From the IMG/VR virus record IMGVR_UViG_3300024052_000085, positions 1 through 64,000 of that record: 64,000 nt of DNA. One strand, 5' to 3'. Source of the stretch: a virus. The number at the start of each line of letters is the position of its first letter. Position 1 is the first letter of the stretch. The notes beneath the pieces are model-generated. The model worked only from the letters and a program-made list of their open reading frames with translations, ran no database searches and was not told the origin of the DNA. Made by a program: the position numbers and the translations under genes. This document shows positions 1,714 to 33,192 of the stretch, piece by piece.

Positions 1714-2793
1714 TGAAGATAGGGAGGAGGGAGGGATCTCTTTGTTGATTAGATATATTAGAATAGAAAGACTAAGGAGAAAGGCTTTGAGAAAAACGAT
1801 ATATCCCGTAGGTATGCCAAAGGATAAGAAAAACGAAATCTCTCGAAAGAGCGGTTATGTTGCTTTGTGTCATCTACGAGACAGTTACAGAGAAGAATAT
1901 CGTAGCGCTGTAACTAGTATTACTGGTGACAAAAAGTTAAATACTACTCATAGAGCTATGGTTATTGTCTCGAATGCTCATACAACAGAATATGATCAAT
2001 TGAGAATCGACAGTCGTACTATATTAATTAATGAATGGATTGCGATGGAAGCAAGTCCTTCAGAGTTAAAGGCTTGTGCTAATAGTGCTTTTAAGTCAAA
2101 GGAAGAAGATCCTAAGCAATCCGAGTCTTTGAGTTTCTTTGGAAAACTACTCTCAAAAGTAGGACTTAGAAACGTTAACTAATGTGTACGAGAGCTGGAG
2201 AAATAACGCATGAACCAGAACATCAGGATTGTATTTGGTGTTGTTGGTGTGACTGTTTTGGGGATTGTCATATTTCTCTTCTCGAATGCAATCAAAAGGA
2301 ATTAGATTATTTTGAAGATCTTTATAAAGGAGGATTTGGAACATAATGAATGTAATAACGTTTAGTAATAGAGAGAGAGGAGAGTTCTTTTTCTCGACTG
2401 ATCATTGTCAAGGAGCGAAGGAAGATACAATTCTAGATAATAATTGGGTTCCGGTTACTCAAAGATTACCAATTAGAATAGTTCCTCGTCCAGGCTTTGA
2501 GAATGGTATGATTAGAACTATTGATGGGCTTATAGCTATCTTCTTCTCTGATATGACTTTGATAGCTAATCCAGATGTGAGGTTTCGAAGGTGAATAGAT
2601 TAATTGACTATGGCAAAATTGATAGATGTCCAATATCTGATGTAGACTATAGCGAAGATGATGAAGTTCTAGTTACTGTTGAACTGAGTGACTTTAGAGA
2701 TGTTAGAATCTCGTATAAAGCTATAGTAGCACTGTATGAAGGACTGATGGAGAATCATCCAGGTTATCCTGATAAGTTATATGAGGTTTGTAA

Positions 2794-3081
2794 ATGACGC
2801 CGTTTGAAGAACAAGTTAAGAAGATTCGAGAACGTTTGGATGTTTTAACTGTTAGAGAGAAAGTAGTTTTATCTTATAGATTCGGATTGGCTGATGGACG
2901 ATCTCTTTCTTTAGAAGAAGTGGGAAAGGGGTTAGGAGTAACTCGTGAAAGAGTTCGTCAGATCGAAGCTAAGGCTTTAAGGAAGATAAATTCTCCTAAG
3001 CAATTGACTAGTGAAGAAAGAAGGGAGGAAAAAGATTCTCGGATGTTGGATAAAGTATTGGGGTGTATCAATAATGGATAG
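2794..3081 (+). CDS. stand-alone sigma70 region 4 (HTH) protein
   Basis: [44 protein letters not shown] matches RpoD region 4.2; regions 2 and 3 absent. Confidence 0.9.
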
Positions 3082-9799: not shown

Positions 9800-10663
9800 A
9801 TGCAGTTCGATAGAGATAAAAGAAAAGCTTATGCTAGAGAGTATCAAGCTAATAAGAAGAGGGAACAAGATCTTCTTAAGAGATGGATAGCTGAAAATCC
9901 TGAAGCTTATCAGAAAAAGTTAGCAGTTATCAAAGCTAAAGCTGATAAAGAGCAATCTAGAGTTCAAGATTTCAGGGATATTGTAGGTACTGAGTACTTT
10001 AAAGCAGTTTCAATACATGCATGTCCTGATTTAATGTGTGAGTGCGGTATTCCGGAGTCTCCAGCTATGCATTCTCCTATGCAAAGATCTAAGAGAAATT
10101 GTAGTACGTGTGGAGAAGACTATTCTGCAGTATTTTATCAAGTAGGATATGAGACTAAAGATCAACATAAATGCGATAGATGGGGTCTGTTTGTAATGTC
10201 TCCTCAAGAATATACTTCTATCAGTAAGGTAGATGGATTGTATAATCAATGGTCTAATAAAGTAATGTTAGCAGGTCCTGGAGAAAGGTATAATAACAGT
10301 AAACCTAATGGACATATAACTCTACAATGGTTTAAACCTTCTAGAGCTTTGTTTGCTGTATGTAATTACTGTAATGAAGGTTTAGATCAAGGGTATCTAT
10401 CTTTCGCAGAAAGAGTTCATAATACTATCTCTGGTCAAGGACATTATGGAGACTCTTTACTGTCGTGTTTAAGATGTACAGAGAAACATTATCAAGCTCC
10501 TCTACCTTTCCAGTGGGAAATTAGAGATTGGGAGATTGGATTCTTTAGTAATAAAGAGTTTGATTGGAGCATTCATCATCAATCTCAAAGAGATGAGATA
10601 GAGAAAAACTTTATGAAATATAAAGGGTATTTAGATTCTATAGACTTTAATGATCTGAGGTAA
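9800..10663 (+). CDS. multi-Cys Zn-binding protein
   Basis: Several CxxC pairs; charged N-terminal helix. Confidence 0.55.
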   Translation: MQFDRDKRKAYAREYQANKKREQDLLKRWIAENPEAYQKKLAVIKAKADKEQSRVQDFRDIVGTEYFKAVSIHACPDLMCECGIPESPAMHSPMQRSKRNCSTCGEDYSAVFYQVGYETKDQHKCDRWGLFVMSPQEYTSISKVDGLYNQWSNKVMLAGPGERYNNSKPNGHITLQWFKPSRALFAVCNYCNEGLDQGYLSFAERVHNTISGQGHYGDSLLSCLRCTEKHYQAPLPFQWEIRDWEIGFFSNKEFDWSIHHQSQRDEIEKNFMKYKGYLDSIDFNDLR

Positions 10664-15982: not shown

Positions 15983-16550
15983 TTAGATGTTTGAAATCTC
16001 ATCTAGGGGAAGGTCCTTAGCACATAAAATTATATATAAAAGAAATGGTGAATACATTGGTTAAAGTTAATTTGGCAAATCAAGAAATGCGAACCTTCGA
16101 TCCCGTACCTGCTGGTACTTACAGAGTAACTGTAGATCAGTGCGAGGAACGTCAATCTCAGATGTCTGGCAATGCCAACATCTTCTGGCTGTTCCGTATT
16201 ACTGACGTCATCAGCACTCAGGGTGATGGAGGCGGCGCTGGTCTAGTAGATCGTACTATTATGCATGGAACTTCTCTTCAGGAGAGCGCTCTTTGGAATC
16301 TCTTCCGGACTCTAGTAGCTCTGGGTGAAGATCCTCAAGGATTGCAGGATGGTGAGTTTGAACTCGAGCCTGATACTCAGATTGGTAAGGAGTGTGTAGT
16401 TACTGTTCGTATCCGTGACTACCAAGGTCAGCCAACAAATAACATAACAGCTCTTCGGGCTCTGTCTGAGTCTGAAGCCGGTGCTCTAGCCTAGGTTATA
16501 ACCTAAAAAGTAGTACCTCACTTCCCCTAGATGAGGTCTCAGGCATCTAA
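15983..16550 (+). repeat. 30-nt long-range inverted repeat (15983-16012 / 16521-16550) bracketing the SSB gene
   Basis: 15-bp perfect core CTCATCTAGGGGAAG/CTTCCCCTAGATGAG, extended by G-U pairs. Confidence 0.85.
16045..16494 (+). CDS. DUF669-like single-stranded DNA-binding protein
   Basis: FDPVPAGTY...S..SGN...IGKEC.V.V....YQG...N.I pattern; follows the Sak4-like ATPase. Confidence 0.75.
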   Translation: MVNTLVKVNLANQEMRTFDPVPAGTYRVTVDQCEERQSQMSGNANIFWLFRITDVISTQGDGGGAGLVDRTIMHGTSLQESALWNLFRTLVALGEDPQGLQDGEFELEPDTQIGKECVVTVRIRDYQGQPTNNITALRALSESEAGALA

Positions 16551-17415: not shown

Positions 17416-17655
17416 TGAAAAATGATTTAGATGATGACAATAATCAATTTATTTGGTGGTTAGGAGAACTCGGAGTTTATTTATTAGAATGCTATAAATT
17501 CAATCTTATGGACCTTCTCGCAAATCATCCAGAAATAGCTAATAAATCTGCAGAGTTAATGAGAGAAGAATTTATGAAGGGTATGGATCCTCATACTTTT
17601 GGAGATTCTATAGTACCTAAAGAGTATACTAAAGTAGAAGGTATTAAGGAGAATT

Positions 17656-18132
17656 ATGCCTGATAAAGAAGAGATTGAACTTGACATAGGTTTTTCCTAC
17701 TTTGGGGATCCTGATTTAGTTACAGAGTATGAAGGTGGGAGTTCTTTTAACTTACAGCCTGGATCTCATAAAAAGGTTATAGGTATAGATTTACAAACTG
17801 TTCCAGAAGACATTCCAGTAGACCAAATAAAAGCAAGTGCTGATTATCTTCCTATACAAGATCAAAGTGTTGATTCAGTATTTGCAGGTGGAGTCTTCGG
17901 AGCTTATGTTGATCTAGAAGACTCTGTTAAAGAAGCAGATAGAGTCTTAAGGCCTGGAGGTAAAATGTTCATAAGAACTTGGGGTAGATATATGCCTCGT
18001 TTGAAATTACTTCTTAAACGTGGATATTACATAACTGAAATGGGTACTCCAGACTCTAAGGATCTCTTTCCAGGCGAGAACCCTTTAGACTTTGAATGGC
18101 ACGTAAGAGCAGTTAAGAGAGGTAAGAGGTAA
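17656..18132 (+). CDS. class I SAM-dependent methyltransferase-like (type 11), paralog 1
   Basis: LDIG, ASADYLPIQDQSVDSV, EADRVLRPGG. Confidence 0.75.
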   Translation: MPDKEEIELDIGFSYFGDPDLVTEYEGGSSFNLQPGSHKKVIGIDLQTVPEDIPVDQIKASADYLPIQDQSVDSVFAGGVFGAYVDLEDSVKEADRVLRPGGKMFIRTWGRYMPRLKLLLKRGYYITEMGTPDSKDLFPGENPLDFEWHVRAVKRGKR

Positions 18133-18134
18133 CA

Positions 18135-18338
18135 ATGGTAGTTGGAGAGTTTTTTAAAGAAGGTAACAAACGTATGTTATGGGTGAGATGTCCTATGTGT
18201 GAAGAGGAAAGAGGAGCACCTGTAAGGACTAAAGAAGATCTACCTAGTCGTTTGTGTAAAGTATGTAATTTGAAGAACGCTAAAATTAATATGGAGAGTA
18301 TATGGAATATTATAAAGAATGATCATACTCAGAGGTAG
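18135..18338 (+). CDS. C4 Zn-finger protein, paralog 1
   Basis: WVRCPMC..ER...RLCKVCN. Confidence 0.65.
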   Translation: MVVGEFFKEGNKRMLWVRCPMCEEERGAPVRTKEDLPSRLCKVCNLKNAKINMESIWNIIKNDHTQR

Positions 18339-18398
18339 ATGAGAAAACGTAGGCGTACTAGAGGTAATAAACGTTATATTAAATATAAGCGAGGTTAT

Positions 18399-19103
18399 AT
18401 GAAAGGATTGGTTTTACATTCAGGAGGATTAGACTCTTCTACGTTACTTGCAGCGGCTGCAGATGAGTGTGATGAGGTAGTAGGTCTTTCTATTGCATAC
18501 GGTCAAAAACATCAAGATAGAGAGATTAGAGCAGCGAGGGAAGTTTGTGCTTACTTTAAAGCAGAGCATCTTGAAATTGAGTTGCCAGATGTCTTCAAAG
18601 GCTTTGGTAGTACTCTTATGGATTCTGATAAAGATAATCCGCATCTTACCTATGAAGAGATCCGCGCTAGCGAAGGTCCTTCTCCTACGTATGTTCCGTT
18701 CCGAAATGCGAATCTTCTTTCCATAGCAACAGCAACTGCTCAGATACATAAATGTGATATAGTATACTTTGGAGCTCACTCGGATGATGCTCACAATTAT
18801 GCTTATCCTGATTGTACTCCTGAATTCATTGGAGCTATGGCAAATGCTATTAGTGTTGGAACGTATTATACTGTACGGTTGAAAACTCCTATTATGTGGA
18901 TGACTAAAGGTCAAGTTACTGAATGGGGTCAAAGTTTAGGAGTTCCCTTTGCAATGACTTATTCTTGTTACGAAGGTACTGAGATACACTGTGGAGAATG
19001 TCCTACCTGTGTTTCAAGACAAGTAGCGTTTGAGGAGGCAGGCATTGACGATCCCACAGAATATACCGGAGGAGCCCAACGCGAAAAAGCCATTCACGGT
19101 TAG
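18399..19103 (+). CDS. queC: 7-cyano-7-deazaguanine (preQ0) synthase
   Basis: SGGLDS, YGQKH, TYVPFRN, YPDC, TYSCY..HCGECPTC; start moved to MKGLVLHSGG. Confidence 0.95.
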   Translation: MKGLVLHSGGLDSSTLLAAAADECDEVVGLSIAYGQKHQDREIRAAREVCAYFKAEHLEIELPDVFKGFGSTLMDSDKDNPHLTYEEIRASEGPSPTYVPFRNANLLSIATATAQIHKCDIVYFGAHSDDAHNYAYPDCTPEFIGAMANAISVGTYYTVRLKTPIMWMTKGQVTEWGQSLGVPFAMTYSCYEGTEIHCGECPTCVSRQVAFEEAGIDDPTEYTGGAQREKAIHG

Positions 19104-19251
19104 TCTAAGTATCTCTTATAGTGTTCCAAGACGCTACTCCAGAATACAAGCTGAAAGTAAAGAACAAGCTTTAGAAATTGCTCTAGAACAGTTACAAAAA
19201 GATACTTGGGGAGTACAGGATGTTAAAGTAATGTCAGTTGAAGAGGGTTAA
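19045..19251 (+). CDS. small protein with AES.E.A.E.A motif
   Basis: TTG start 6 nt after GAGGAGG; overlaps the queC end. Confidence 0.45.
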   Translation: MTIPQNIPEEPNAKKPFTVSLSISYSVPRRYSRIQAESKEQALEIALEQLQKDTWGVQDVKVMSVEEG

Positions 19252-19954
19252 TGTGGTAGACGCTTTAGATATTAAGAAAATAGAAGTTACGGAGATCTTT
19301 AGTTCTCTTCAAGGAGAGGGTAAGAGATGTGGAGTTCCTGCAACCTTTGTAAGATTAAGAAGATGTAATCTAGCTTGCATATGGTGCGATCAAAAAGAGA
19401 CTTGGGATGTAAACGATCCTGGGTATAACAATTATGAACTTAAGCATATATCTGAAATAAGACAACAGATATTAGACTACAATAATAGACTATTAGTTAT
19501 TACAGGAGGTGAACCTCTACTTTGGCAAAGAGAGCTAAGATATTTAATTGACTCAATGCCAAGTGAGATTAGTATAGAGATAGAATCTAACGGAACTATA
19601 GATCCAAGTTTTCTAAAGTTGACTAGGACTGAATTTAATATTTCACCTAAGATGTCTAACTCTGGAAACGGTGAAAGAAATACTAAAGTACATGACGAAT
19701 ACCTCGATCTATTTAAACTTAGAAGGGTCGTATTTAAGTTTGTAGTTAAGACAGCTAGTGATTTTGAAGAGGTAGATAGGTTTGTAGCTAATTATAATTT
19801 AAATCCTAAAGGTATTTATGTTATGCCTGAAGGAGTTGACCGAGAAACCATTTGCACTAGACTTCCAATCCTCTTCGATTATTGTAATGAGAGAGGATAT
19901 AATTTAACTACTAGATTACACGTTCTAGCCTTTGGAGATATGAAAGGAGTTTAA
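19238..19954 (+). CDS. queE: 7-carboxy-7-deazaguanine synthase (radical SAM)
   Basis: EIFSSLQGEG, CNLACIWCD, TGGEPLL, ESNGT, ISPK. Confidence 0.93.
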   Translation: MKRVNVVDALDIKKIEVTEIFSSLQGEGKRCGVPATFVRLRRCNLACIWCDQKETWDVNDPGYNNYELKHISEIRQQILDYNNRLLVITGGEPLLWQRELRYLIDSMPSEISIEIESNGTIDPSFLKLTRTEFNISPKMSNSGNGERNTKVHDEYLDLFKLRRVVFKFVVKTASDFEEVDRFVANYNLNPKGIYVMPEGVDRETICTRLPILFDYCNERGYNLTTRLHVLAFGDMKGV

Positions 19955-20145
19955 ATGCTAAGATCAACCATGATTACATGTTGCTATAAAGTATGTGGTA
20001 AAAACCATGGTTCTTCCCTAGGGTTACACTTTGATACTGATATTAAAGAAGTGTATTGTAACGTAAAGTGTTATGTAGAAGACTATTTCCTGAAACATAC
20101 AGGAAGACAAGGCGAAATTATAGAAACTGATAGAGGGTATAATTA

Positions 20146-20823
20146 ATGGTAGAGCAGACTAACGAAGATCCAAGAGTAGTTGGAGGAGACTTTACAGAGA
20201 TTGTAAAATCAAGAAATAAAGGAGTTGAAGAAGATATTAATTATGGAGATAAAGAGAGAGGTAAAGATTTAGAAGACGCAGCTAAGTTAATAATCAAAGC
20301 TCTAGGCGAAGATATAAATGCAGAAGGACTATCTGAGACTCCAAGACGTTTCAGAGAAATGTTTATGGAGGATTTCTGGCCTGGAGATTCTTTAGATACT
20401 GTTCTAGGTGAAATGGTAATGGAAGAAAGCTTTGACCAAATGGTTATAGTTAAAGATATCCCAATCCGTTCACATTGCGAACATCACATATTACCTTGGT
20501 GGGGTAAGGTTTGTTTAGGTTATATTCCTCATGCTAAAACTGTTGGGTTAAGTAAAATGACTAGAATGGTTGATGCAGCAGGTAAAGGACTAACTATTCA
20601 AGAGAGAGTAACTGATAGTATTGCTCAGAGTATGAATAGAGTTCTAGATCCTAAAGGTGTAATGATAGTAGTTGAAGCAGTTCATATGTGTACTCTAATG
20701 AGAGGAGTAAAAACTGAAATGCAAAGATTTACTACCAGCACGGCTAAAGGAGTATTCTTAACTAATTCAGCACCTAGACAAGAGTTTCTAACCTTGTTTG
20801 CTAAAAATGGAAGTTTGATTTAA
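20146..20823 (+). CDS. folE: GTP cyclohydrolase I
   Basis: GL.ETP.R, SHCEHH.LP, GLSK, IQER, HMC..MRG. Confidence 0.95.
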   Translation: MVEQTNEDPRVVGGDFTEIVKSRNKGVEEDINYGDKERGKDLEDAAKLIIKALGEDINAEGLSETPRRFREMFMEDFWPGDSLDTVLGEMVMEESFDQMVIVKDIPIRSHCEHHILPWWGKVCLGYIPHAKTVGLSKMTRMVDAAGKGLTIQERVTDSIAQSMNRVLDPKGVMIVVEAVHMCTLMRGVKTEMQRFTTSTAKGVFLTNSAPRQEFLTLFAKNGSLI

Positions 20824-20828
20824 TTTCT

Positions 20829-20954
20829 TCTCTAGCTTTGCTAGAGAGGTACTGTTGATCGGGAAACCGGCATGAGGATCACCTCCCTCAAACTACCTCC
20901 CGTCACGTGTGGGGCCGGCTGTAATCGTGGTTATCAACAGTACCTCTCTAGTAA
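20829..20954 (+). ncRNA. structured sRNA candidate with anti-SD (CCUCC) motifs
   Basis: Perfect 19-bp closing stem 20841-20859 / 20933-20951; internal GGATCACCTCCCT and CTACCTCCC. Confidence 0.6.
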
Positions 20955-20971
20955 ATATAAAGGAGAAATAA

Positions 20972-21175
20972 ATGTTAACAACATTCGAAGAATTGCAAGT
21001 CTATCTTAGATCAGAACATCCATCAAGTCATAGTGTAGGGCCTTGTGTACTGTGTAGTGAAACAACTTCTGATAGATGTATTAGATGTAAAAAGTATTTC
21101 TGCGGAACTCATGTAGGACGTAAAGACTGTATCACCCCTAGAGATCTGTATGCAAATAAAATTGAAGATCGTTAA
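20972..21175 (+). CDS. small Zn-finger (AN1/B-box-like) protein
   Basis: CxxC...CxxC...CxxH...C. Confidence 0.55.
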   Translation: MLTTFEELQVYLRSEHPSSHSVGPCVLCSETTSDRCIRCKKYFCGTHVGRKDCITPRDLYANKIEDR

Positions 21176-21189
21176 GGAAGAGTTAAAGG

Positions 21190-22269
21190 ATGCTTATAGA
21201 GAGTTTACACGGAGAATCTCAATGGACCAGAAGTCCAATGACCAACGGAAATATAAGAATGTCAATGACAGAAAACTGTCCTAGACAACAAGTGTATGTC
21301 GCTTTGGGGATAGAACAAGACTATCCTGAGACTGGAAGATCTCAAATGGCTGCTGATGATGGTAATCTACATGAAGCTGATGTAGTAAATAGATTCTTAG
21401 CAGCTGGTTATCGTTGTTGGAATTACGGTGAAGACCAAGCTATGGTGCATTTTGAAAGGGATGGTGTACGCTTTAGAGGACATCCTGATTTATTCATGGA
21501 AACTCCCGAAGGTGAAGTAATAGGAGTAGAACTCAAAGGTTATAGAGATGAAACCTTTAGACAGTTCGTTCAAGGAGCTGTACAGACAGTTCCAGGAATG
21601 TGGTCTGTTTCAGATTGGTCTAAACTAACTAAGAGACCTTATCCTTTAATGGGTCAATTACAAATGTATCTTCATTCTGATACTTCTACTAGTTATGGAA
21701 TAGATAAATGGGTTCTAGTTATGAAGAATAAAAACACTGCAGAGCTAGCTGAGTGTATTATTACTAAAGATGACGATTATATTAATAGACTAATAAGAAA
21801 GTGGAAAGGTTTCTGGGCTTATATTGAAGCTGGAAGACTTCCAGATAGATTCTTTGGAGATGATAGCATAGAATGTCGAAGATGTCTGTTTCGTCAAAAG
21901 TGTTGGAATCTTGGTGAAGTATTTACTTCAAAAGAGGATGTAGTTCACGTTAAAGGTTTAGAGAAGTTTGCTTCTATGCGAAGAGAAGGAAGTCTTTTAA
22001 AGAAGGATGCTGAAGGCCTATTAGAAGAATCTAGAATGGCTTTTCTAACTGAACATATTAATAAAGAAGCTACTAGGATAGAGTGTGACGGTCTTACAAG
22101 TACTGTAAGCGAAAGAAATAGAAGAGGTTTAGATAGTACAGAAGTAAATAAGGTTCTGGCCTATATGCTAGAAAAAGGTAATATTGACGATCAACAATAT
22201 GATGATTGTTTTAATGATGTAAGTTATCAGGAGGTTAGATTTAAAGATGTTAAACCCCGAGATGCCTGA
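21190..22269 (+). CDS. Cas4-like PD-(D/E)xK exonuclease
   Basis: CPR, GHPD, ELK, QLQMY and C-terminal CRRC..RQKC cluster ligands. Confidence 0.8.
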   Translation: MLIESLHGESQWTRSPMTNGNIRMSMTENCPRQQVYVALGIEQDYPETGRSQMAADDGNLHEADVVNRFLAAGYRCWNYGEDQAMVHFERDGVRFRGHPDLFMETPEGEVIGVELKGYRDETFRQFVQGAVQTVPGMWSVSDWSKLTKRPYPLMGQLQMYLHSDTSTSYGIDKWVLVMKNKNTAELAECIITKDDDYINRLIRKWKGFWAYIEAGRLPDRFFGDDSIECRRCLFRQKCWNLGEVFTSKEDVVHVKGLEKFASMRREGSLLKKDAEGLLEESRMAFLTEHINKEATRIECDGLTSTVSERNRRGLDSTEVNKVLAYMLEKGNIDDQQYDDCFNDVSYQEVRFKDVKPRDA

Positions 22270-22627
22270 TACTAAGTCTATGAACTTTGAAGAATTGGTA
22301 GAGTATCGTAAAGGTATTGGTTATAATGTTTATGGAGTAGAATTAAGTTATGGCGTGATTGTAGATAGTGCTTACTATAAAGATGTTACATGGGAATGCA
22401 TAGAAGAATTAGCAGACGCTTTTGTATATTTAGACTTTGAAAGAGAAAAGTTGATAAACAGATCTTCTAAAGTAAATGTAAGAAGGATAGAATCTATTCA
22501 GAATAGAGTTAAAGACTGCGTAGTATTTATAAACAATTATAGAGACCTAATTAAAGAAAAATTTCCAGAACTTTTGGAGGATACATTACAAGATGAAATT
22601 CGCACCGGTACTGTCAGAGAAGTATGA
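22247..22627 (+). CDS. MazG-like all-alpha NTP pyrophosphohydrolase
   Basis: E..EELADA.VY motif. Confidence 0.55.
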   Translation: MLNPEMPDTKSMNFEELVEYRKGIGYNVYGVELSYGVIVDSAYYKDVTWECIEELADAFVYLDFEREKLINRSSKVNVRRIESIQNRVKDCVVFINNYRDLIKEKFPELLEDTLQDEIRTGTVREV

Positions 22628-23378
22628 TCCAGCTAAATATTCCAATTATCATTTAGTATTGGCAAATGAAGTTATTAGTGATAACAGTTACGCTAATTAT
22701 TATAGCTCACTCGCTATCGACCATACTATTATTCTAGATAGCGGAACTGTCGAAATAGGTTATGCAGATTCTGAAATGATATTTGCAGCAGTAGAGAAAT
22801 TAAATAGAGAAGTTATTGTAGTTGCTCCAGATTTCTTAGGAGATAAAGATCGTACAATATTAGAGACTGAAGACTTTCTAAGTCAGGATGGATGTCCTGG
22901 CAAAGATAATGTAATGATAGTACCTCAAGGTGAAACTCCTGAAGAGTGGATTGAATGTTTTGATTACTTAGATCTTAATTACAATGAAAAGTTTAAGTGG
23001 GTTGGGATCCCTAGGATATCAGAAGACTTTCCAGGAGGTAGAAGTTGGTTGTATCAAAATGTAATGCAGATACACCGTAGGAGGAGGAGTATGAATGATC
23101 AACCTAAAATTCATCTTTTGGGACTACAACATACTTTAGATGAGATAGAATGGGCAAAACATTTCAGTTCTAGAATTGTAGGTGTTGATAGCAGTGCTCC
23201 TCTTAAAGCCGCAGAAATTAACGTTTTATGTTCTGAAGTTGTAGACTTTAGATTACTTACAGATATAAATGTAAATCCTTCAGAGGATTTAGTAGCCGAA
23301 AGAATACAAGAAATGGTTGAATATACTTCTTTCAGATGGAGTGTTAAAACTCAGGGAGAATTAATAAATGGAGCCTAA
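22593..23378 (+). CDS. DpdA-like TGT-fold DNA base-exchange (transglycosylase) protein
   Basis: ILDSG, APD..GD, VPQG, IHLLG, GVDSS motifs in TGT order; que gene context. Confidence 0.7.
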   Translation: MKFAPVLSEKYDPAKYSNYHLVLANEVISDNSYANYYSSLAIDHTIILDSGTVEIGYADSEMIFAAVEKLNREVIVVAPDFLGDKDRTILETEDFLSQDGCPGKDNVMIVPQGETPEEWIECFDYLDLNYNEKFKWVGIPRISEDFPGGRSWLYQNVMQIHRRRRSMNDQPKIHLLGLQHTLDEIEWAKHFSSRIVGVDSSAPLKAAEINVLCSEVVDFRLLTDINVNPSEDLVAERIQEMVEYTSFRWSVKTQGELINGA

Positions 23379-25812
23379 ATATCCTGGATGTAATTGCGAA
23401 GAGTGTCCTTTAAAAGATGAAGGTTTTGTTCCACCTAGCGGACCTGAAGATTCTGATATCTTATTTATAGGACAAGCTCCTGCATATTACGAAGTTAGGA
23501 GTGGTAAACCCTTCTCAGGACCTTCAGGTAGTGTACTCGATGGTTCTCTAGAGAGTGTAGGATTACGTCGAGAAGACGTAAGAACAGATAATAGTGTACT
23601 TTGCTTTAATGCAGCAGGTTCAGGAGATCCTTCAATAGCTGCAGTAAGAGCATGTAATGGGCACATTAAAGAGGCTTTAAGTAAATCTAAATATGTTGTA
23701 CCTATGGGCAATAGTGCTTTAACTGCTATCTTTGATAAAGAAGTTGAAGGAATAACTCAATATGCTAATACACTATTCAGGCATAACGATAATATTATTC
23801 TTCCGCTAATACATCCAGCATTTTATCTTAGACAGTCAGGTGAAATGTTTAGAGACTTTTTAGAGGGTATGGCTCTACTCAAAGATCAAATAGACGGAGG
23901 TACTCTTTGGAATGACTTAGACTTTAAGTTTACAGTATTTAGGACTGTAGATGAAGTGATTCCTTTTCTAGAGAACCTCAGAGATAATCCTCCAGAGACT
24001 CTTGCAGTTGACTTAGAAACAGATTTCCCAGATCCCGTAAGAGGTGTTATAACAGGTGTTTCGCTTTGTAGTAGATATGATGAGGCTTTTATTATTCCTT
24101 GGGACTCTAACTATTTGGAAAGTCACGGAAGCGATATTGAACCGCTTTTGGAATATCAAAACGTCTTCGACTTGCTCAAAGAAGCTTTAGAAGCTCAAGA
24201 TGGAGTAGTAATGCATAATGCTCCTTTCGATGCAAGACTATTACGTCGAGAGGGTATAAATATTAGAGTCAGAGATGACAGTCTTTTAATGCATTATGCT
24301 TTAGATGAAAGAGCAACATCTCAAGGATTAAAGAAAGTTGCTAAAGTAATGTTAGGTATTCAAGATTGGGAATCTGATCTTAAACAATACTTACCTAATA
24401 AGGCCGCTCCGTATACTATGATACCTCCTGAAGTATTATATCCTTATGCTGCTAGGGATGCATGCTATACTTTAGTCTTGAGAGATTTACTTAGGAAACG
24501 TTTAGATGCTCCGGGAAACGAAGGTCCGTCATCTTTATACGAAAATATCTTAACTCCTTGTAACGAACTACTAATGGCTCTTAGTTTAGAAGGCGTGTCT
24601 ATGGATTCGCAAATTCTTGTAGACGCTATGACTGAGATGCCTGCTAAGCTTACAGAGCTAGAAAAAGAATTAGAAGAGTTGTCAGGAGATAGATGGTTTA
24701 ATCCTAGAAGCCCTAAACAGATTTCTGAAGTTATGTTTGGAAAACTTGGATTGAGACAGATTAATGGAACTAGTACAAATAAAGAAGTATTAGAACAGCT
24801 CTCTGGAGAACATGCTTTTGTAGATACTCTTATAGAGTATAGACAGTATCTAAAAGTATCTTCTACCTATATGGAAAACTTTGCTAAGAGTTACCAAAAT
24901 GGTAAAGGTTATCCAGATCTAAGATTATTTGGAACTGTTACAGGAAGGTTAAGTGGTAGTAAACTTAATCCTCTTACAATGCCTAGAGAGAGTAGAGGTG
25001 ATTTATATCGTTCTATAAAGAATGTATTTATAGCAGATCCAGATTGTTTCTTATGGGCTTCAGATTACAGAGCTGCTGAATTAAGAGTTATGGCTGTATT
25101 AGCAAACGATGATTGGTTAATAGAACAATTAAGTAGTCCTGATATAGATTTTCACTCTATAATGGCTGAACAAATATTCGGCGAAGAATTTATGGGTGCG
25201 GATAAATCCAGACAGAAGGAACTTCGAGTTATAGCAAAGATGTTCGTCTTTGGTCTTAACTATGGAAGAGAAGCTCCCTCAATAGCTAAACAGTTAGGTT
25301 GCGGCATTAATGAAGCTACTGATTTAATAGCAAAATATTTTAAACCAATGCCTAACGTATTAGCATGGCGTAAAGAAATGGAACGTACAGCTGTTGAAGA
25401 TGAATATCTAGAGAATCCTTTTGGAAGACGAAGACGCTTTTCTTTAATAACAAAAGATAATATTCATGATATAAAGAAGCAAGCTATTAACTCTCCAGTA
25501 CAAGCTACAGCTAATGATCTTAACTTACTAACTATGGAAAGGATTAGAAGAGAGCTTGGACCTGAAGTAAGAACATTATGGCCAGTACATGATAGTATAC
25601 TAATGAATGTTAAGGAGACAGTACCTAACGAAACACTATATGATCTAAGAGATATACTGTTTAAATATCCCAGTGAATTACTAAAGACAAGACTTCCTTT
25701 CTTTATTGATATCGCAGTAGGATATGCTTGGGGAACCTTAAAAGAAGTTAATGAAATTGAAGAGATTAAGGGTGCTTTAGCTCAACTCACACCTAGCAAC
25801 TCAGCATCATAG
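23368..25812 (+). CDS. polA: family A DNA polymerase with N-terminal family-4 UDG-like domain and 3'-5' exonuclease
   Basis: CxxCPL, GQAP, PFSG.SG, HPAF (UDG); DLET, HNAPFD, YAARD (exo); TGRLS, DYRAAELR, AKMFVFGLNYG, NSPVQ, VHDS. Confidence 0.93.
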   Translation: MEPKYPGCNCEECPLKDEGFVPPSGPEDSDILFIGQAPAYYEVRSGKPFSGPSGSVLDGSLESVGLRREDVRTDNSVLCFNAAGSGDPSIAAVRACNGHIKEALSKSKYVVPMGNSALTAIFDKEVEGITQYANTLFRHNDNIILPLIHPAFYLRQSGEMFRDFLEGMALLKDQIDGGTLWNDLDFKFTVFRTVDEVIPFLENLRDNPPETLAVDLETDFPDPVRGVITGVSLCSRYDEAFIIPWDSNYLESHGSDIEPLLEYQNVFDLLKEALEAQDGVVMHNAPFDARLLRREGINIRVRDDSLLMHYALDERATSQGLKKVAKVMLGIQDWESDLKQYLPNKAAPYTMIPPEVLYPYAARDACYTLVLRDLLRKRLDAPGNEGPSSLYENILTPCNELLMALSLEGVSMDSQILVDAMTEMPAKLTELEKELEELSGDRWFNPRSPKQISEVMFGKLGLRQINGTSTNKEVLEQLSGEHAFVDTLIEYRQYLKVSSTYMENFAKSYQNGKGYPDLRLFGTVTGRLSGSKLNPLTMPRESRGDLYRSIKNVFIADPDCFLWASDYRAAELRVMAVLANDDWLIEQLSSPDIDFHSIMAEQIFGEEFMGADKSRQKELRVIAKMFVFGLNYGREAPSIAKQLGCGINEATDLIAKYFKPMPNVLAWRKEMERTAVEDEYLENPFGRRRRFSLITKDNIHDIKKQAINSPVQATANDLNLLTMERIRRELGPEVRTLWPVHDSILMNVKETVPNETLYDLRDILFKYPSELLKTRLPFFIDIAVGYAWGTLKEVNEIEEIKGALAQLTPSNSAS

Positions 25813-26580: not shown

Positions 26581-29500
26581 ATGGGTCTTGATCATAGGTT
26601 TGGGGGAGATCATCCTCTTTCTTCTGGTCCTGCTAATGTACCAGAGCCTGAAGAATTACAACAAATTACAGAATCTGAACCTGAATCTGTAGATACTTAT
26701 GAACCGCCTGAAATGATCTCTTCAGGTATTCATGAAGTGTTTACTCAGGAAGATATTGATTCTGCAGCTGATGATTGGCAAGATATAATGGATGCTCAGG
26801 AGCCAGATCCAGAACCTGAGTATGAACCAGATCCTGAACCTGATCCTATACCTGAACCTGTTGAAACTTTTATAGAAGATGACATCTTTTTCGATCAAAC
26901 TGCTTCAGATGAAGAATATGAAGAGATAATAGATGCTGCTATTGAAGCAGCTATAGAAGAGCCTGTTGTAATAGTTCCTGCACCTGCTATAGGACCTCAG
27001 GAATCCGAACTTCCATTTATAGCTCCTCCTGACGAAATTATACTTCCTGATTCAGTTACATCTGAAAGTCAAGAAGAGACTGAAACTAACGTTGAACTAG
27101 CTACTATTGCATTACAGACTGAGAAAGATTTATTAATAGTAGAAACTCAAAATGATAACTTTGAAGAACTTGTTGAAAATATAGAAACAGTAACGGCTTC
27201 AGACGTGTTTAGGCAAGAAGCTGTAGGTAGTATTACTTCAGAACAAGCTGCTACTGTTTTAACTGAGATTAAAGGTAATCAAGAACAAGAACAACACGCT
27301 GCTCAGGTAGAGGCTTTAAGGCCTGCTACAGAGATTCAAGAAAGCTTAACAACCTTAATCGAAATGGAAGGTGAAGGTTCAAGTTTCTTCTCTACCGTAA
27401 ATAATCACTTTACAAGACATGTAGAATCTAGAACTGAAAGAGGTCTAGTTACTGATGAGGCTGAAGCAACTAGACTTTTTGAAACTATCCGAGATCAGTT
27501 AGCTCCTCAGTTAAAAGATCAGATAACCCACTTAGTATCTTCGGGAAACACTAGTATTATAAATGCTCTAGATCATGGTTTTACTGAGAGAGAACTTAGA
27601 GATTTTGGTTACACTACTGAACACTATCAAAATGCAGTAGAAACTAGAACTATTAGAGACGCTGTTATTATCAGCCATCAAGGAAATGTAATAGAGGCAC
27701 TTGTAAAGAGTGAAGATGTTACAGAAGATAATTTAATTAAATTATATTCTGAAGAGACTGTAGCTCAAATAGTTAACGTTTCTAACTTCGCAGACTCTGA
27801 AGGAATTGTAGATCCTTATGCTGCTATAGTTACAGATTCTGACAACATAGCAGAAGATCTTAAATTGTTCTTTAACGAAGATTTTATAGATACTCTAGGA
27901 GAAGTTAGTGAGTATATTGAAGTTGGAGAAGAGGGTGAAGAGTCTTTAGTAAATGCAGAAAGTTACGTTAGAGACAGCCTTGAAGATGGTGATCTAGAAG
28001 TAGTAGAAGAGAATCTAACTAAGTTAGGTTTCTCTAATGCTTCATCTTATATCGAAAGCGTACAGACAATTGTAAAGGCCGAAATTGCTACAGATGTAAT
28101 TGAAGAAGCTATAGGTATAGAAGATCTAAATAATTTCGAACCAGATAATAAAACTAGATCCAGTAAAATATTTACATTATATGCAAGAACAGAAAATTCT
28201 GATTCCCAAGTATTAGTAGACTACGGTTATCCTGAAGATATTTCTGAAGGTATAATAGTAGTTAAAGATTTTATTGATACTGAAGGTGTTTTAGATTCTT
28301 ATGGTGCTGCTCTAGGTGGTAAGACTAAAGAAGAACTAGAGGGTGCTGGTATTACAGAAGCTGATGCTAATTCAGCCACTCAATGGGGTCGAGTATCTAG
28401 AGCTATTTATGCAGATATTGGAGTACGTCCAGAAAATGTTACTCCTCTACAAGCAGCTAAATCTCAAGGTATTTATGGTACTTCAATACTATTTGGAGAT
28501 AACATTGCTTGGGCTGCAATGCATACTGTTCCACATCTTACTAAAGATGGTACCTTACTACCTCAAGTAGCTATGGCTAACGGTTTAAATAGTAATCATT
28601 TAATTACTTTGGGCGTTCCGGAAGAGAGAGTAAGGAATCTTCGAACTTTATCTACGTACTTTAATAAAGATAATAGAGAATACGATACCGCTTTAATGTG
28701 GTCAGATCCAGAAGCTCGAGAAGCAATCTTAAATCTAGCTCCTCAAGATACCGATAGTTTAGAATCAGCTTTTAAGTTCGGAGAAGCTAGAGAAACCTTT
28801 AGACTATCTTTTGGTATTGATTCGTATTCAGACGATCCAGGAATAGATGCTCCTACAGACCTCAGTACTGCTACTCCTATAGCTTTTATTCATCAAGGCG
28901 GTGATCCTCAAGTTCTTAAAGATATGACTGTCGATCCCGAAACTGTAGATGCGATAGTTACTTTAAATAACTTTGGAACGATATCTAGAGAAGGTAGTAT
29001 AGATATTAGAAGATCTATGGATCATAACGAAGCTGAACCTGATAAAGGAATTAAAGCTGCGTTAAGAACTTTAGAAGTGTCTTGGGAAGATATAAACAAA
29101 CAAGAGAAAAGAATAGAAGAAGCTCCTTTAGTAAGAGCTGCTCAATCTAGACTTGGATTAACTGATAGTAGTCTGCCTGATGAGATAACAGGAGATGTTA
29201 GTACTTTTAATCCTACTAAATACTATCTAGAAAACGGTCCTGAAGATTTTACAATTGCAAAGTTTAAACCTGAATACGTTGAAGCTTTAGAAACTTTATA
29301 TAACAACGATAGAATAGCTTCTGATGGCTCGCTGTTAATAGGTAATTTAATCACTCTTAAAGATGATTTTACTACTGAATGGGTTCCTGCTGCAATACCT
29401 TTAGAAAACGAAGAGTATCAAGCTTTAACTACTTTAGGAGTCGATGTAACTGAGATTCCAGAGTATGAAAGCTATATGCATTCTTTAGTAAAGACTGAAG

Positions 29501-32500
29501 GTGTTCCAGATGAGCTTAGTTTAATTACTGAATACGATTCTAATGGTGAGCTAGTAAGATCTTCTCAGGATATGGTCTTAGCTAGATTAAATATAATTAA
29601 CAATCCTGGAAGTAATAGAGAAACTCCAGATGAAGTAAGAGAAAGAGAATCTGGGAGAGGTTCTCTAGCTTCTATATCTAGAACATCTATTCCTGATATT
29701 GCTTCTATAGCTAATATTAAGGGCGTCGATAATATTATCAATTACTTTGATTGGAGTGGACCTCAGGAAGTAGTAGATTTAGGTAAAAGGTATTTTAATT
29801 ATCTACGTACTCAGAAAGAGAGAGATAAAGAACGAAGAGAGCAAATAGCTCTTCTAAAGGCAGAGGGTGAACTTGCTTTAGAAGACACTAGATTCATTTC
29901 TGCTTTATCTGGTGATCAAACGTTTACTCCTAACGTTGCAACTCTTTGGAAGTCCGTAACTTCGGATGATAAGTTTGACTATGAAGATTATTTACCAGGT
30001 ATGTTGCCTTTAGATTCTAGAACTCCTTTAGGTGTTAGGGATCAAGCAAGAATAGCTGCCTCAGGAGAAGGTATAGGTACTCAGGCAGCTCTTATGGCGG
30101 CTGGAGCCGTTATGGGTATGGTAGATCCTCTTCAGATAGGTTCAGATGTAAAAGAAGGTTGGGGTGCATGGGAGCAGGAACAAGAGCTTATCGATCAACG
30201 TAGAGCAGAAAGAATTGAAGCCTTAACTTCTACAGAATTAGCAGAAGAGGAACGAGTTAAAGAAGAGGGATTGTCTAGAACTGAAATGATGTTCTCGTCT
30301 GCAGCACTTTCAGGAATTGATTCAAAAGGGCCTTCAGCAGATGTAATAAGAATGATTCCTGGCCAAGAAGATTATGCTCCAGGTAGAATAGAATGGTTTA
30401 CTAAAATGATGGCTGTAGGTATGGTTCCTGGAGTAGGAACTGTTCAAGGTGTTACTGCAGCTATTAAAGCTCCAGAACATATTTCTAGAAGCATGGCTAT
30501 AGGTCAAGCTGTTGGCTCTACTATTATGGATCTAGCTTTCTTCCTTCCTTTGGCAAAAATTAGAATACGTCCTTCAACCATTAAAAATACTGGAGTGACA
30601 CATATTTCTAATAGAGCTGATGATGCTATAAGAGAGTTTTCTAAAGCTCGAGATGTTCTATTAAAACAAGGTAAAGATGCTCCTACACTAAAATTTGAAG
30701 AAGTCTCTAGTTATGACCATATACGAGAAGTTAATAGAGTTATAGATAATCTAGAAGACGTTGAGGGATTAAATATACTTCCAGACGAGTTAGTCGTTTC
30801 GAATAATTTAGATCCTATGCACGTATCAAATTCTATAAACGCTCGGAAGGGTATAATAGATCATCTAGATAGTAAGGTAACTGTTGAAAATCTTCTTGAT
30901 GATGTAAACTCTCCTAAAAATATTTCAGACAAAGTTAAATTAGAATTTGAAATCGATACTAACGTACCCGATCCTAGATTAAATTCTGAAGATCTTAATA
31001 CTGTTATTCAACTTCTTAAAGAAGACAAACCTGAAAGTGTACAGATTGAATATTGGGCAGTTAAGGAATCCAAAGATTCTGCTCCAGCAATAAAACCAGA
31101 AGGTACTATTAAATCTAAAAGTCCTGCTGCAGAGATTGCAGAACTTCGTAGATCTGCTAATTCTATTGAAGAACTTAATATCCCAAGCATGAAAGAGACA
31201 ATACGTGCTAATGAACAAAACCCTAGTGGAGGTATTGATAGAGCACAATTTTTAGACGAATCTTTAAATCGTTTAGAAGAACAAGTAGCGAGTAAGAGAA
31301 GTAGAGCGGATCTTCTTGAAAGAGGAGAGACACCAGAAGACTTTTCAACAATAATATCTGAAGGAGATTTACTATCTTCAATCAATAGAGTTACTCCTAC
31401 TGAACTTAAAGCTTATGTTGATGGTATTCGTGAAGCACTTGAAGAAGCAGATATAACTGTAGTTGTTAAAGTTAAAGAAGGAAAGGCAATAACTGCAGAT
31501 CAAGTATTGACTCCTGATGAAATAAAATTTATACCTGAACAATCTAAGTTCGACGCTGCTGCAGAAGGTTTTGGAACTCCTCCTAAAGATGAAGTTGTAA
31601 AGATGCCTTCTGAGGATGATTTTTTTACTCGTTTAGATGATCAATGGGAGCCAGAGGGTACATCAGATTTTAATATTCAAGATATTATAGGACCTGGACC
31701 TAGCGATGGCCCTACGGCATTTACAGGAACGTCTGCTGTTATGGAACGAGTAGGTGCGGAAGTACAGCCTCAAGTATCTTCTGCTCAACTACAACAAGCT
31801 ATGCAGCAAGCAGACAACCTAGGTATACAAATAAAAGGTACTGTAACAAGTCCTGAAGATTTAAATTACTATGTTCAATATACTACTGAAACGACAGCTA
31901 CACCTGTAACTCTTTCTTTCACTGACTTCTTTGGTCCCGCTTTAGGTACTTCTCTATCTTCGACTATGGAACAATATAGAGGTCTTGATTATGCTGAGTT
32001 ACCTAAATCTTTATCTGTTACAGGTTATACTCCTGTAATTGATTTGTCTGCCTATAACTTTAATACTTCAGGAGAAGCTTCAGCTGTTCCAACGTCTTAT
32101 ACCCCCTACTTTAGTAGCTATATTGGAGAAGACCAAGTAAGTCAGGGAATTAATCCTATTCTCTATAATAGAGGTTTAGAAGGTTTAGCTATAGCCCCTA
32201 ATATAGGTTCTAATAAATCTCCTCAAGGTCTATTAGGAGGAGTAGATACTATAGGTAAGTTTGATAAAACGATTCCTATGATGTTAACTGCACCTGATAA
32301 TCCAGTAAGATTTGAACCAGGTAAAGGTTGGGTTCAAGATACTGGAGAGTATACTTTTACTGATGCTACAGGCGGTCAAGAACAAAGAATAATATCTACA
32401 GGCACTGGAACAGAAGGAATGTCAGGTGTAACACCTTCTGAATTTACAAGTCCGGGCTCTAGACAATTTGTAGGTCCTGGATCTAAACAATTTGTAGCTC

Positions 32501-33192
32501 CTGGAGAGGGTATATCTAGTAGTCCTGTTTCAGGCACTAGGTCGAGTACTAGTTCTTCTACAAGCGCAGCTAGTAAGGCGGGAACTAAATCATCTACTAG
32601 TTCAGCAACTAAATCAGCAACTAGCTCTGGAACCAAGTCTGCTACAAGTGCTACTACAGCTTCAGCTCAATCAATTCAGTCAGCTATGTCCACAGGAACA
32701 GCTTCTGCAGTTAGTGTTTCGACTGGAGTTAGTGTAGATGTATCTCCTTTAATATCTCCGGCGATCAAACCTGTAGTTAAACCTAAACTTAAGGATAAGC
32801 TTAAGGAAGATACAAAAGTTAAGAGTCCAAAATTACCTAAGAGAAAACCTAAAGTTAGGGGAAAGGATAAGGATAAGAAAGTGGACGAGAAATATAAGGC
32901 AGCTAATATTAAAGGTGCAGTAGCTTGGAAGCAAGATGATGTTACTGGTGTTTATGTAATTTGGTATCCTCCGTATAATTTAGAGACTTTAGATTATGCT
33001 CTTCAAATTCCTGGGGGAGTTAAACGAGTAAAGACTATTCAAACTGCTTGGAGATGGATACATAATAGAGGAGGTGAGGTACCTGAAGATTCTTTAAGAG
33101 AAGTAGCTCTACTAGCTAAATCGTCTGCTCCTAGTCCTGCAAGTACTTTAGATGATATCTTGGGAGGAGAAGGAAAATTAATATTAAAGTAG
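26581..33192 (+). CDS. 2203-aa acidic virion-associated protein with degenerate helical repeats
   Basis: Directly after the capsid genes; acidic N-terminus, Ser/Thr-rich then Lys-rich C-terminus. Confidence 0.55.
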   Translation: MGLDHRFGGDHPLSSGPANVPEPEELQQITESEPESVDTYEPPEMISSGIHEVFTQEDIDSAADDWQDIMDAQEPDPEPEYEPDPEPDPIPEPVETFIEDDIFFDQTASDEEYEEIIDAAIEAAIEEPVVIVPAPAIGPQESELPFIAPPDEIILPDSVTSESQEETETNVELATIALQTEKDLLIVETQNDNFEELVENIETVTASDVFRQEAVGSITSEQAATVLTEIKGNQEQEQHAAQVEALRPATEIQESLTTLIEMEGEGSSFFSTVNNHFTRHVESRTERGLVTDEAEATRLFETIRDQLAPQLKDQITHLVSSGNTSIINALDHGFTERELRDFGYTTEHYQNAVETRTIRDAVIISHQGNVIEALVKSEDVTEDNLIKLYSEETVAQIVNVSNFADSEGIVDPYAAIVTDSDNIAEDLKLFFNEDFIDTLGEVSEYIEVGEEGEESLVNAESYVRDSLEDGDLEVVEENLTKLGFSNASSYIESVQTIVKAEIATDVIEEAIGIEDLNNFEPDNKTRSSKIFTLYARTENSDSQVLVDYGYPEDISEGIIVVKDFIDTEGVLDSYGAALGGKTKEELEGAGITEADANSATQWGRVSRAIYADIGVRPENVTPLQAAKSQGIYGTSILFGDNIAWAAMHTVPHLTKDGTLLPQVAMANGLNSNHLITLGVPEERVRNLRTLSTYFNKDNREYDTALMWSDPEAREAILNLAPQDTDSLESAFKFGEARETFRLSFGIDSYSDDPGIDAPTDLSTATPIAFIHQGGDPQVLKDMTVDPETVDAIVTLNNFGTISREGSIDIRRSMDHNEAEPDKGIKAALRTLEVSWEDINKQEKRIEEAPLVRAAQSRLGLTDSSLPDEITGDVSTFNPTKYYLENGPEDFTIAKFKPEYVEALETLYNNDRIASDGSLLIGNLITLKDDFTTEWVPAAIPLENEEYQALTTLGVDVTEIPEYESYMHSLVKTEGVPDELSLITEYDSNGELVRSSQDMVLARLNIINNPGSNRETPDEVRERESGRGSLASISRTSIPDIASIANIKGVDNIINYFDWSGPQEVVDLGKRYFNYLRTQKERDKERREQIALLKAEGELALEDTRFISALSGDQTFTPNVATLWKSVTSDDKFDYEDYLPGMLPLDSRTPLGVRDQARIAASGEGIGTQAALMAAGAVMGMVDPLQIGSDVKEGWGAWEQEQELIDQRRAERIEALTSTELAEEERVKEEGLSRTEMMFSSAALSGIDSKGPSADVIRMIPGQEDYAPGRIEWFTKMMAVGMVPGVGTVQGVTAAIKAPEHISRSMAIGQAVGSTIMDLAFFLPLAKIRIRPSTIKNTGVTHISNRADDAIREFSKARDVLLKQGKDAPTLKFEEVSSYDHIREVNRVIDNLEDVEGLNILPDELVVSNNLDPMHVSNSINARKGIIDHLDSKVTVENLLDDVNSPKNISDKVKLEFEIDTNVPDPRLNSEDLNTVIQLLKEDKPESVQIEYWAVKESKDSAPAIKPEGTIKSKSPAAEIAELRRSANSIEELNIPSMKETIRANEQNPSGGIDRAQFLDESLNRLEEQVASKRSRADLLERGETPEDFSTIISEGDLLSSINRVTPTELKAYVDGIREALEEADITVVVKVKEGKAITADQVLTPDEIKFIPEQSKFDAAAEGFGTPPKDEVVKMPSEDDFFTRLDDQWEPEGTSDFNIQDIIGPGPSDGPTAFTGTSAVMERVGAEVQPQVSSAQLQQAMQQADNLGIQIKGTVTSPEDLNYYVQYTTETTATPVTLSFTDFFGPALGTSLSSTMEQYRGLDYAELPKSLSVTGYTPVIDLSAYNFNTSGEASAVPTSYTPYFSSYIGEDQVSQGINPILYNRGLEGLAIAPNIGSNKSPQGLLGGVDTIGKFDKTIPMMLTAPDNPVRFEPGKGWVQDTGEYTFTDATGGQEQRIISTGTGTEGMSGVTPSEFTSPGSRQFVGPGSKQFVAPGEGISSSPVSGTRSSTSSSTSAASKAGTKSSTSSATKSATSSGTKSATSATTASAQSIQSAMSTGTASAVSVSTGVSVDVSPLISPAIKPVVKPKLKDKLKEDTKVKSPKLPKRKPKVRGKDKDKKVDEKYKAANIKGAVAWKQDDVTGVYVIWYPPYNLETLDYALQIPGGVKRVKTIQTAWRWIHNRGGEVPEDSLREVALLAKSSAPSPASTLDDILGGEGKLILK

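Follow-up and report, generated by a model that had tools for sequence, protein, structure and literature searches.

A conserved, pseudoknotted structured RNA within the 7-deazaguanine and replication operon of uncultured marine phages

Genomic context of the element

The window analysed here, the whole 64,000-nucleotide stretch covering positions 1 to 64,000 of IMGVR_UViG_3300024052_000085, is AT-rich, carries every gene on the + strand and forms part of a 78.7-kb IMG/VR virus record. Most of its large ORFs that were tested have no PHROG family, suggesting a virus poorly related to described phages; two of its ORFs are giant (26581-33192 and 38274-45968, 2203 and 2564 aa). Between 18339 and 25812 lies a 7-deazaguanine gene set made up of queC, a queE-like radical-SAM gene, folE, a Cas4-like exonuclease, a DpdA-like ORF and a UDG-PolA fusion, together with a conserved 63-aa Cys-rich ORF at 19955-20146; among the window ORFs tested, Pfam recognised no queD.

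The element described here occupies a 148-nt spacer within this set. On its 5' side are queC, the radical-SAM (queE-like) gene and then folE; on its 3' side a 67-aa Cys-rich ORF, for which no Pfam or PHROG family was matched, precedes the Cas4-like exonuclease, a small ORF, the DpdA-like ORF and the UDG-PolA fusion. The element thus sits inside a queC-queE-folE / exonuclease-DpdA-PolA transcription unit. In the neighbourhood 17500-23500 there is no excess of sigma-70-like promoters and no terminator-like site, the closing helix of the element (P1) being followed by AUAUAAAGGAG with no U-run, and this fits co-transcription with the flanking genes. ARAGORN found no tRNA or tmRNA cloverleaf in the window. 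The features of the locus are as follows.

20146-20823, + strand: folE, GTP cyclohydrolase I (Pfam PF01227, GTP_cyclohydroI, E 2.7e-55), with its stop codon immediately 5' of the element
20824-20836, + strand: 5' flank (alpha), pyrimidine-rich, from MFE folds of the window and relatives
20837-20859, + strand: 5' arm of P1, 23 nt, partner 20933-20955, with double-sided change in 13 of 23 pairs over nine sequences
20860-20864, + strand: 5' strand of P5, CGGGA, partner UCCCG at 20898-20902, predicted by RNAalifold and MFE folding
20867-20871, + strand: 5' strand of the pseudoknot, CCGGC, in the P5-P3 internal loop, partner GCCGG at 20914-20918
20873-20890, + strand: P3 hairpin, UGAGG / CCUCA (arms 20873-20877 and 20886-20890) with an 8-nt loop, AUCACCUC; three of five pairs covary
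20891-20902, + strand: AACUACC followed by the 3' strand of P5, UCCCG (second CCUCC motif), invariant in all nine sequences
20903-20930, + strand: P4 hairpin, UCACG / CGUGG (arms 20903-20907 and 20926-20930) with an 18-nt loop
20933-20955, + strand: 3' arm of P1, from complementarity to 20837-20859 and pair counts
20961-20974, + strand: ribosome-binding site (RBS) and start codon of the 67-aa ORF (GGAG 20962-20965, start 20972-20974), the RBS lying inside an outer helix
20972-21175, + strand: Cys-rich ORF of 67 aa, from the ORF list, the first gene 3' of the element in this genome

Predicted structure of the element

An earlier note made from the letters of this DNA had described a perfect 19-bp stem enclosing a GC-rich insert of about 73 nt, and both descriptions hold. 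The arms (20841-20859 and 20933-20951) are fully complementary, and the insert has a GC content of 0.575 against about 0.35 around it. The 19-nt arms are the sole two matches in the window, where 0.04 would be expected by chance. As RNA the helix is 23 bp long (20837-20859 with 20933-20955), and the repeat can be followed to 40 nt at 85% complementarity (20820-20859 with 20933-20972). Folding of the + strand RNA gives -65 kcal/mol (z -8.3), which none of 200 shuffled sequences equalled.

Inside P1, the core is organised as a three-way junction with nearly no unpaired bases at the junction itself (0-2). The internal loop of the P5-P3 arm pairs with the apical loop of P4 and so locks the fold; this apical loop holds UGUGGG, the pseudoknot strand GCCGG (20914-20918) and CUGUAAU. 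The loop of P3 carries a string resembling the end of 16S rRNA, discussed below.

Occurrence in related phages and in environmental RNA

Relatives of the locus were reached via folE and an alignment of the downstream exonuclease, with one more obtained by a core pattern search, and blastn together with a covariance model (R1) served to detect the element in them. It is carried by nine distinct sequences, which come from contigs of marine viruses and metagenomes: the window, L010 (the same as L011), L001 (the same as L006 and L012), L019, L015, L016, L017, L013 and L043, the last an IMG/VR contig from another phage. In eight of the nine, folE lies 5' of the element. The single exonuclease protein used as a query returned no related loci, whereas the alignment-based scans did find relatives.

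Searches further afield were negative. The covariance model gave no copy in 27 loci of distant relatives (exonuclease identity 48% or less), blastn of 1.6 kb around the element had no match among 50,697 GenBank phage records, and two core patterns gave no copy in 185,579 prokaryote genomes, where four GC-rich pattern matches failed to pass the covariance model and were set down to chance. Four core patterns run against IMG/VR retrieved only two known records besides the window's own, and no second site was found in the 78.7-kb record of the window or in that of L043, each of which holds a single copy.

A further variant was seen in assemblies of seawater RNA libraries. Contigs run from folE into the core, and in two libraries the core is enclosed by a third version of P1, GGAUUAUCAGU with ACUGGUAAUUC, complementary once again. 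These are assembled contigs in which DNA carry-over is possible; some runs leave gaps at 20828-20871 and 20960-21047, and some contigs stop within the core, breaks that arise from assembly and were given no weight as evidence. Contigs matching window positions 20881-20933 carry the core with unrelated flanks, indicating that the metatranscriptome assemblies hold family members in contexts absent from IMG/VR. The family is probably under-sampled here.

Covariation and strand

Pair counts were taken on a nine-sequence alignment (A3), which represents about five independent lineages. Covariation, proposed in the earlier note as a check, bore out the fold: pairing holds in 98.7% of 377 cells, and 19 pairs are doubly changed. 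None of 500 shuffles reaches any of the observed pairing or covariation measures, and in slid-partner controls pairing falls to 36-55%. For the pseudoknot, 100% of cells are paired and two of five pairs covary (one goes from C:G to U:A in four sequences, the other from G:C to U:A in two), while P4 shows one A:U to G:C covariation and one single-sided change, U:G to U:A. RNAalifold, which is blind to pseudoknots, independently gives P1, P5, P3 and P4.

The covariation therefore supports a three-way junction with a loop-loop pseudoknot, and positions 20837-20955 of the + strand form a conserved structured RNA with such a core. P5 is invariant, so that this helix is predicted only, and the unpaired core is nearly so. 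Across the nine sequences the only unpaired core positions to vary are those of the P3 loop, position 20920 and the junction bases 20931-20932; the P4 loop changes at 20920 alone (U to C in L001). This all but invariant part of the fold thus has the standing of a prediction.

The alignment contains 28 G:U cells against three A.C cells, and model R1 gives the + strand 140 bits and the - strand 35. Together, these asymmetries indicate an RNA read in the same direction as the genes. The earlier note had also pointed to a perfect Shine-Dalgarno (SD) sequence before a 10-codon ORF on the minus strand. That ORF can be read in the sequence, but both asymmetries contradict the SD and mini-ORF reading, as the G:U cells would be A.C on the minus strand.

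The outer helix and the ribosome-binding site

Beyond P1, positions 20824-20831 (UUUCUUCU), directly after the folE stop, pair with 20961-20968 (AGGAGAAA), the RBS of the next ORF, whose probability of being unpaired is about 0. The same pairing between flank and RBS appears in the MFE folds of L010, L001 and L019. One U:A to C:G change between the window and L019 keeps the outer helix, and L001 keeps it with a different sequence on the RBS side. The sequences showing RBS burial are mostly close relatives; in L017 the true exonuclease RBS lies outside the helix and in L013 there is no adjacent RBS, so that burial is not universal. In L043 the 3' arm of P1 is followed by a U-run (TTCTTTTTTGTTT) instead of an RBS.

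The earlier note had further proposed a competing hairpin, TCTCTAGC-TTT-GCTAGAGA (20829-20847), that would exclude the long stem. This hairpin is present, pairing 20829-20836 with 20840-20847 at -9.9 kcal/mol, and it is kept in the close clade, with an independent compensated version in L013 (UCUCUGC-UUG-GCAGAGA, -9.4 kcal/mol), but it is weak in L017 and absent from L043. A two-state switch is possible for the outer helix; P1, with its 23 bp, is much too stable for gating by a ligand.

Constraint on the core and history of the insertion

The most informative comparison is with L043, whose proteins are only distantly related to those of the window (queC 36% identical, folE 28%, DpdA-like 27%, queE and PolA 26% each, exonuclease 23%). 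When 13 kb of L043 are compared with the 64-kb window, the 74-nt core, at 89% identity, is the only nucleotide similarity, and the two match at 57 of the 65 core positions that lie outside the P3 loop. P1 behaves quite differently. Just 16 of its 46 positions agree between the two, about the random level, and still 15-16 pairs are formed. This replacement of sequence with retention of complementarity, seen in L043 and in the RNA-library variant, argues that P1 is selected for pairing only. The core, by the same comparisons, is under selection at nearly all of its bases. P1 ranges from 15 to 29 bp across members and is 23-29 bp long in most: the window has 23 bp with an extension of 8-10 bp, L017 and L013 have 24-29 bp, and L043 has 15-16 bp.

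The surroundings of the element suggest how it came to lie where it does. In three of the more distant relatives, which lack it (L008, L031 and L032), the stop codon of folE touches or overlaps the start of the Cas4-like exonuclease (2417-3001 with 3001-4077 in L008). The element and the small Cys-rich ORF are thus later insertions, and the gene pair that received them was probably translationally coupled. The gene following the element differs among carriers, being the 67-aa ORF in the window, L010, L001 and L019, and the exonuclease in L015-L017, from which the 67-aa ORF is missing. In L013 that ORF is replaced by one of 412 aa (L013:1726-2964), which has glucose/sorbosone-dehydrogenase-like (GSDH, DUF7133) beta-propeller domains and lies between the element and the exonuclease.

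In L043 the element is found elsewhere in the same module, 5' of a Zn-ribbon ORF, a UvrD-like helicase and queC, the order after it being helicase-queC-folE-DpdA-like-exonuclease-queE-PolA. A small Cys-rich, zinc-finger-like ORF is the first after the element both in the window (20972-21175, 67 aa, CxxC...CxxC) and in L043 (9950-10123, - strand, 57 aa, CPTCHGTG); homology between the two is not obvious, and neither has a Pfam or PHROG family. The 156-aa ORF preceding the element in L043 (10320-10790, - strand) is a homologue of the window ORF at 16045-16494 (32%, E 2e-13), which lies 4.3 kb 5' of the element, showing that genes of the module have changed their order. Just 5' of the element, L043 also has a second hairpin (10260-10298, - strand; CUCCC..GUACAG / CUGUAC..GGGAG), whose 11-nt loop, ACACUCACCUC, displays CACCUC again.

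Likeness to the 3' end of 16S rRNA

The central claim of the earlier note was a small RNA mimicking the 3' end of 16S rRNA, the anti-SD region. The two motifs on which it drew, GGATCACCTCCCT and CTACCTCCC, are both present in the element, and the view of a structured + strand RNA fares well, since the fold is conserved in relatives and the long stem is suited to excision. The 16S identity itself does not survive. GGAUCACCUCC, read as a copy of the conserved 16S terminus, is lost in all relatives, whose P3 loops of 6-9 nt read UCCACCUC, UCACCUC, AACGCCUCC, ACACCUC or AACCUC. The AUCA positions are substituted there, or one to three bases are lost, leaving only (A/G)CCUC in common; the 11-nt identity is consequently peculiar to the window genome. 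The second motif, ACUACCUCCCG, is invariant, and its 3' part falls in the predicted helix P5.

A CGG-GAAA-CCG tetraloop hairpin had also been reported, and no helix-45-like GNRA hairpin next to the tail is supported in the element. The proposed helix shows no covariation and is broken (C:U) in two of nine sequences (L017 and L013); it is unsupported because its 3' bases covary with GCCGG at 20914-20918, as the pseudoknot. The likeness to the ribosomal RNA end is, in our view, mostly a coincidence of this one genome, and the idea of a ribosomal-RNA mimic should be carried forward only with new evidence.

Possible roles of the element

The explanation that we favour, tentatively and at a little short of an even chance for the proposal as a whole, is that of an RNA module lodged in an operon, with the RBS buried by P1 and the outer helix and the core released by processing. 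The module would be a self-contained RNA carried in a polycistronic mRNA, with P1 and its outer extension folding the 150-nt insert out of the way. The folded helix would juxtapose the folE stop and the following RBS and hide the latter, such that translation of the downstream gene would depend mainly on a ribosome unwinding the helix at its base as it completes folE (translational coupling), or on the duplex having been cut. Near-perfect duplexes of 23 bp or more are standard substrates of host RNase III, and P1 of the window exceeds the roughly two turns (20 bp or more) of near-perfect duplex that mark an RNase III site. With a duplex of this length, cutting would probably set the core free as a stable, discrete RNA of about 80-110 nt, which would be the selected product. 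Cleavage by RNase III is thus probable, going by duplex length alone. The 15-16 bp of P1 in L043, with a U-run on its 3' side, speak against use of RNase III throughout the family and suggest a different use there, such as termination. A purely insulating role for the module fails to explain the extreme conservation of the core.

What the core itself might do is a more speculative matter. RNAs with such covariation and core conservation across distant phages usually have a specific job, be it ligand binding, catalysis or recognition of a conserved partner. The invariant 73-nt core may represent a new functional RNA class of phage 7-deazaguanine DNA-modification and replication modules, acting either as a metabolite aptamer (for preQ0, CDG, a related deazapurine or a pterin) that would time expression of the exonuclease, DpdA and polymerase, or as a new self-cleaving ribozyme; we put this forward as a suggestion that has perhaps one chance in a handful of being right.

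Among the rivals to the favoured explanation, the one that survives best is a riboswitch-like aptamer or protein operator controlling the downstream replication and 7-deazaguanine DNA-modification genes in cis, in which binding to the core would stabilise P1. The all but invariant unpaired core and a fold of junction plus pseudoknot, as in many aptamers, would suit such a regulator, and in both independent contexts the element lies 5' of, and co-oriented with, the same gene module. In the window clade, moreover, an RBS is concealed by P1, in L043 a U-run comes immediately after P1, and the alternative 5' hairpin overlaps this helix. The main weakness is P1 itself, since 23-29 bp in most members and about -65 kcal/mol overall far exceed what ligand gating allows. 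Forming the alternative hairpin would cost P1 just eight of its 23 pairs, and L043 lacks this hairpin. The gene that directly follows the element differs among members, the independent contexts number only two, and no Rfam riboswitch model was matched even at E values up to 10. On balance we regard cis-regulation of this kind as unlikely.

A new class of self-cleaving ribozyme, processing the transcript between folE and the next gene, seems to us improbable. The element is small and pseudoknotted, its junction and loop nucleotides are very highly conserved, and it occurs only in phage and metagenome DNA, where it lies between co-directional genes and has no fixed neighbour. Marine phages carry hammerhead, twister and HDV-like ribozymes in spacers of this kind. 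Nevertheless, no Rfam ribozyme family is matched, a hammerhead core (CUGANGA and GAAA at the junction) cannot be placed in a junction with 0-2 unpaired nucleotides, and the order of helices is unlike the HDV-like double pseudoknot (nested P1-P2-P3-P1.1-P4 with a catalytic C). A 23-bp clamp would, in addition, keep the cleavage products together.

No better placed is the small RNA of the earlier note, in which exposed CCUCC motifs would imitate the anti-SD and block GGAGG-type RBSs of phage or host mRNAs. C-rich loops that target the SD are a known mechanism of small RNAs, as in staphylococcal RsaE and RNAIII, and all nine sequences keep CCUC(C) in the 3' part of the P3 loop, the rest of which is variable; the extra upstream hairpin of L043, with its loop ACACUCACCUC, would also fit. 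However, the 11-nt 16S identity is unique to the window genome, the second motif is partly buried in P5, the hairpin resembling helix 45 (h45) is unsupported, and a simple seed-pairing RNA needs no invariant pseudoknotted core. Complementarity to neighbouring RBSs is uninformative here, as every SD is complementary to CCUCC. We judge this reading to be as doubtful as the ribozyme.

Finally, a feature of the DNA itself (a miniature inverted-repeat mobile element, cruciform, origin or packaging signal) is very improbable: a GC-rich insert with inverted-repeat borders in an AT-rich genome, missing in distant relatives and at another place in L043, might be so read, but there is one copy per record, the arms covary without conservation of sequence, the excess of G:U over A.C cells reflects selection on one RNA strand, the internal helices and pseudoknot covary as well, and no target-site duplication or terminal repeat is common to the window and L043.

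Several further candidates were tried and rejected. A protein-coding reading loses its ATG (20872) in six of nine sequences, and a retron ncRNA finds no reverse transcriptase nearby. A hairpin like lambda boxB would use the same bases as the unsupported GAAA hairpin. Likeness to the purine riboswitch at the level of sequence comes down to a UAAUCGCG-GG string, with a different topology and no Rfam match. As for CUGUAAU/UGU as anticodon-loop-like mimics of TGT/DpdA substrates, there is no closed 7-nt hairpin loop, and two UGU per 73 nt is about the chance level.

Under the favoured explanation of a module released from the operon transcript, the locus offers a clean example of an RNA inserted between two translationally coupled genes that leaves the operon unbroken. 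Both independent contexts lie within a module that makes 7-deazaguanine and installs it in phage DNA. A DNA-hypermodification system that, to our knowledge, has so far been described in protein terms only would gain an RNA part if the element turned out to act as a sensor, as a ribozyme or as a regulatory RNA excised from the transcript.

Comparison with known RNAs

A search of Rfam 15, which the earlier note had proposed, was made with window positions 20300-21500 and five relatives at E values up to 10, and no family reached its gathering threshold. The sole hit on the element was the Luteovirus BTE (RF00434; 19.2 bits against a gathering threshold of 45, E 0.29), and the relatives gave no hit on it at all. 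The BTE shares a long closing stem, and the GAUC-GGGAAAC-GG string of the element resembles its 17-nt element; as the BTE belongs to eukaryotic plant viruses, we judge the resemblance to be chance.

No SSU rRNA model of Rfam was reported as matching the element either. With the 16S rRNA 3' end (helix 45 and the anti-SD tail, GGAUCACCUCCUUA), the window shares the 11-mer GGAUCACCUCC, and CCUC(C) is conserved as a core in the family. Set ungapped against the 16S end, the window agrees at 22 of 33 positions, including GGGAAACC against GGGGAACC. In the element, however, the motif lies in a closed hairpin loop rather than at a free 3' end, the bases of the GAAA 'hairpin' pair with a distal strand, and the identity is not conserved in relatives.

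Purine and THF-I riboswitches likewise join three helices at a junction, which a hairpin loop secures by Watson-Crick pairing with another loop, and the neighbourhood of the element is one of pterin and deazapurine metabolism. The element shows no similarity to them in sequence or Rfam model, however, and its P1 is several times longer than that of any riboswitch.

The stems cut by RNase III, namely the intergenic R sites of T7 and the flanks of pre-16S and pre-23S rRNA, are also long, near-perfect intergenic duplexes flanking functional RNA in a polycistronic transcript, and the duplex of the element adjoins an RBS. The T7 sites differ in that each is a simple hairpin interrupted by an internal bubble, and they lack a conserved core; cleavage of the element is a prediction.

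In kind, the element matches the covariation-supported intergenic RNAs of uncultured viruses to which no function is assigned, such as the metagenome motifs of Rfam and the csRNAs of a viral catalogue of 10,006 unnamed structured-RNA candidates (PMC10690425). We found no description of the motif in the literature, and it may be among those candidates, as one of the unnamed DNAVirus_N models (PMC10690425). We therefore describe the element as a phage-restricted folded RNA of uncultured marine phages, strongly conserved and absent from Rfam 15, which this catalogue might include.
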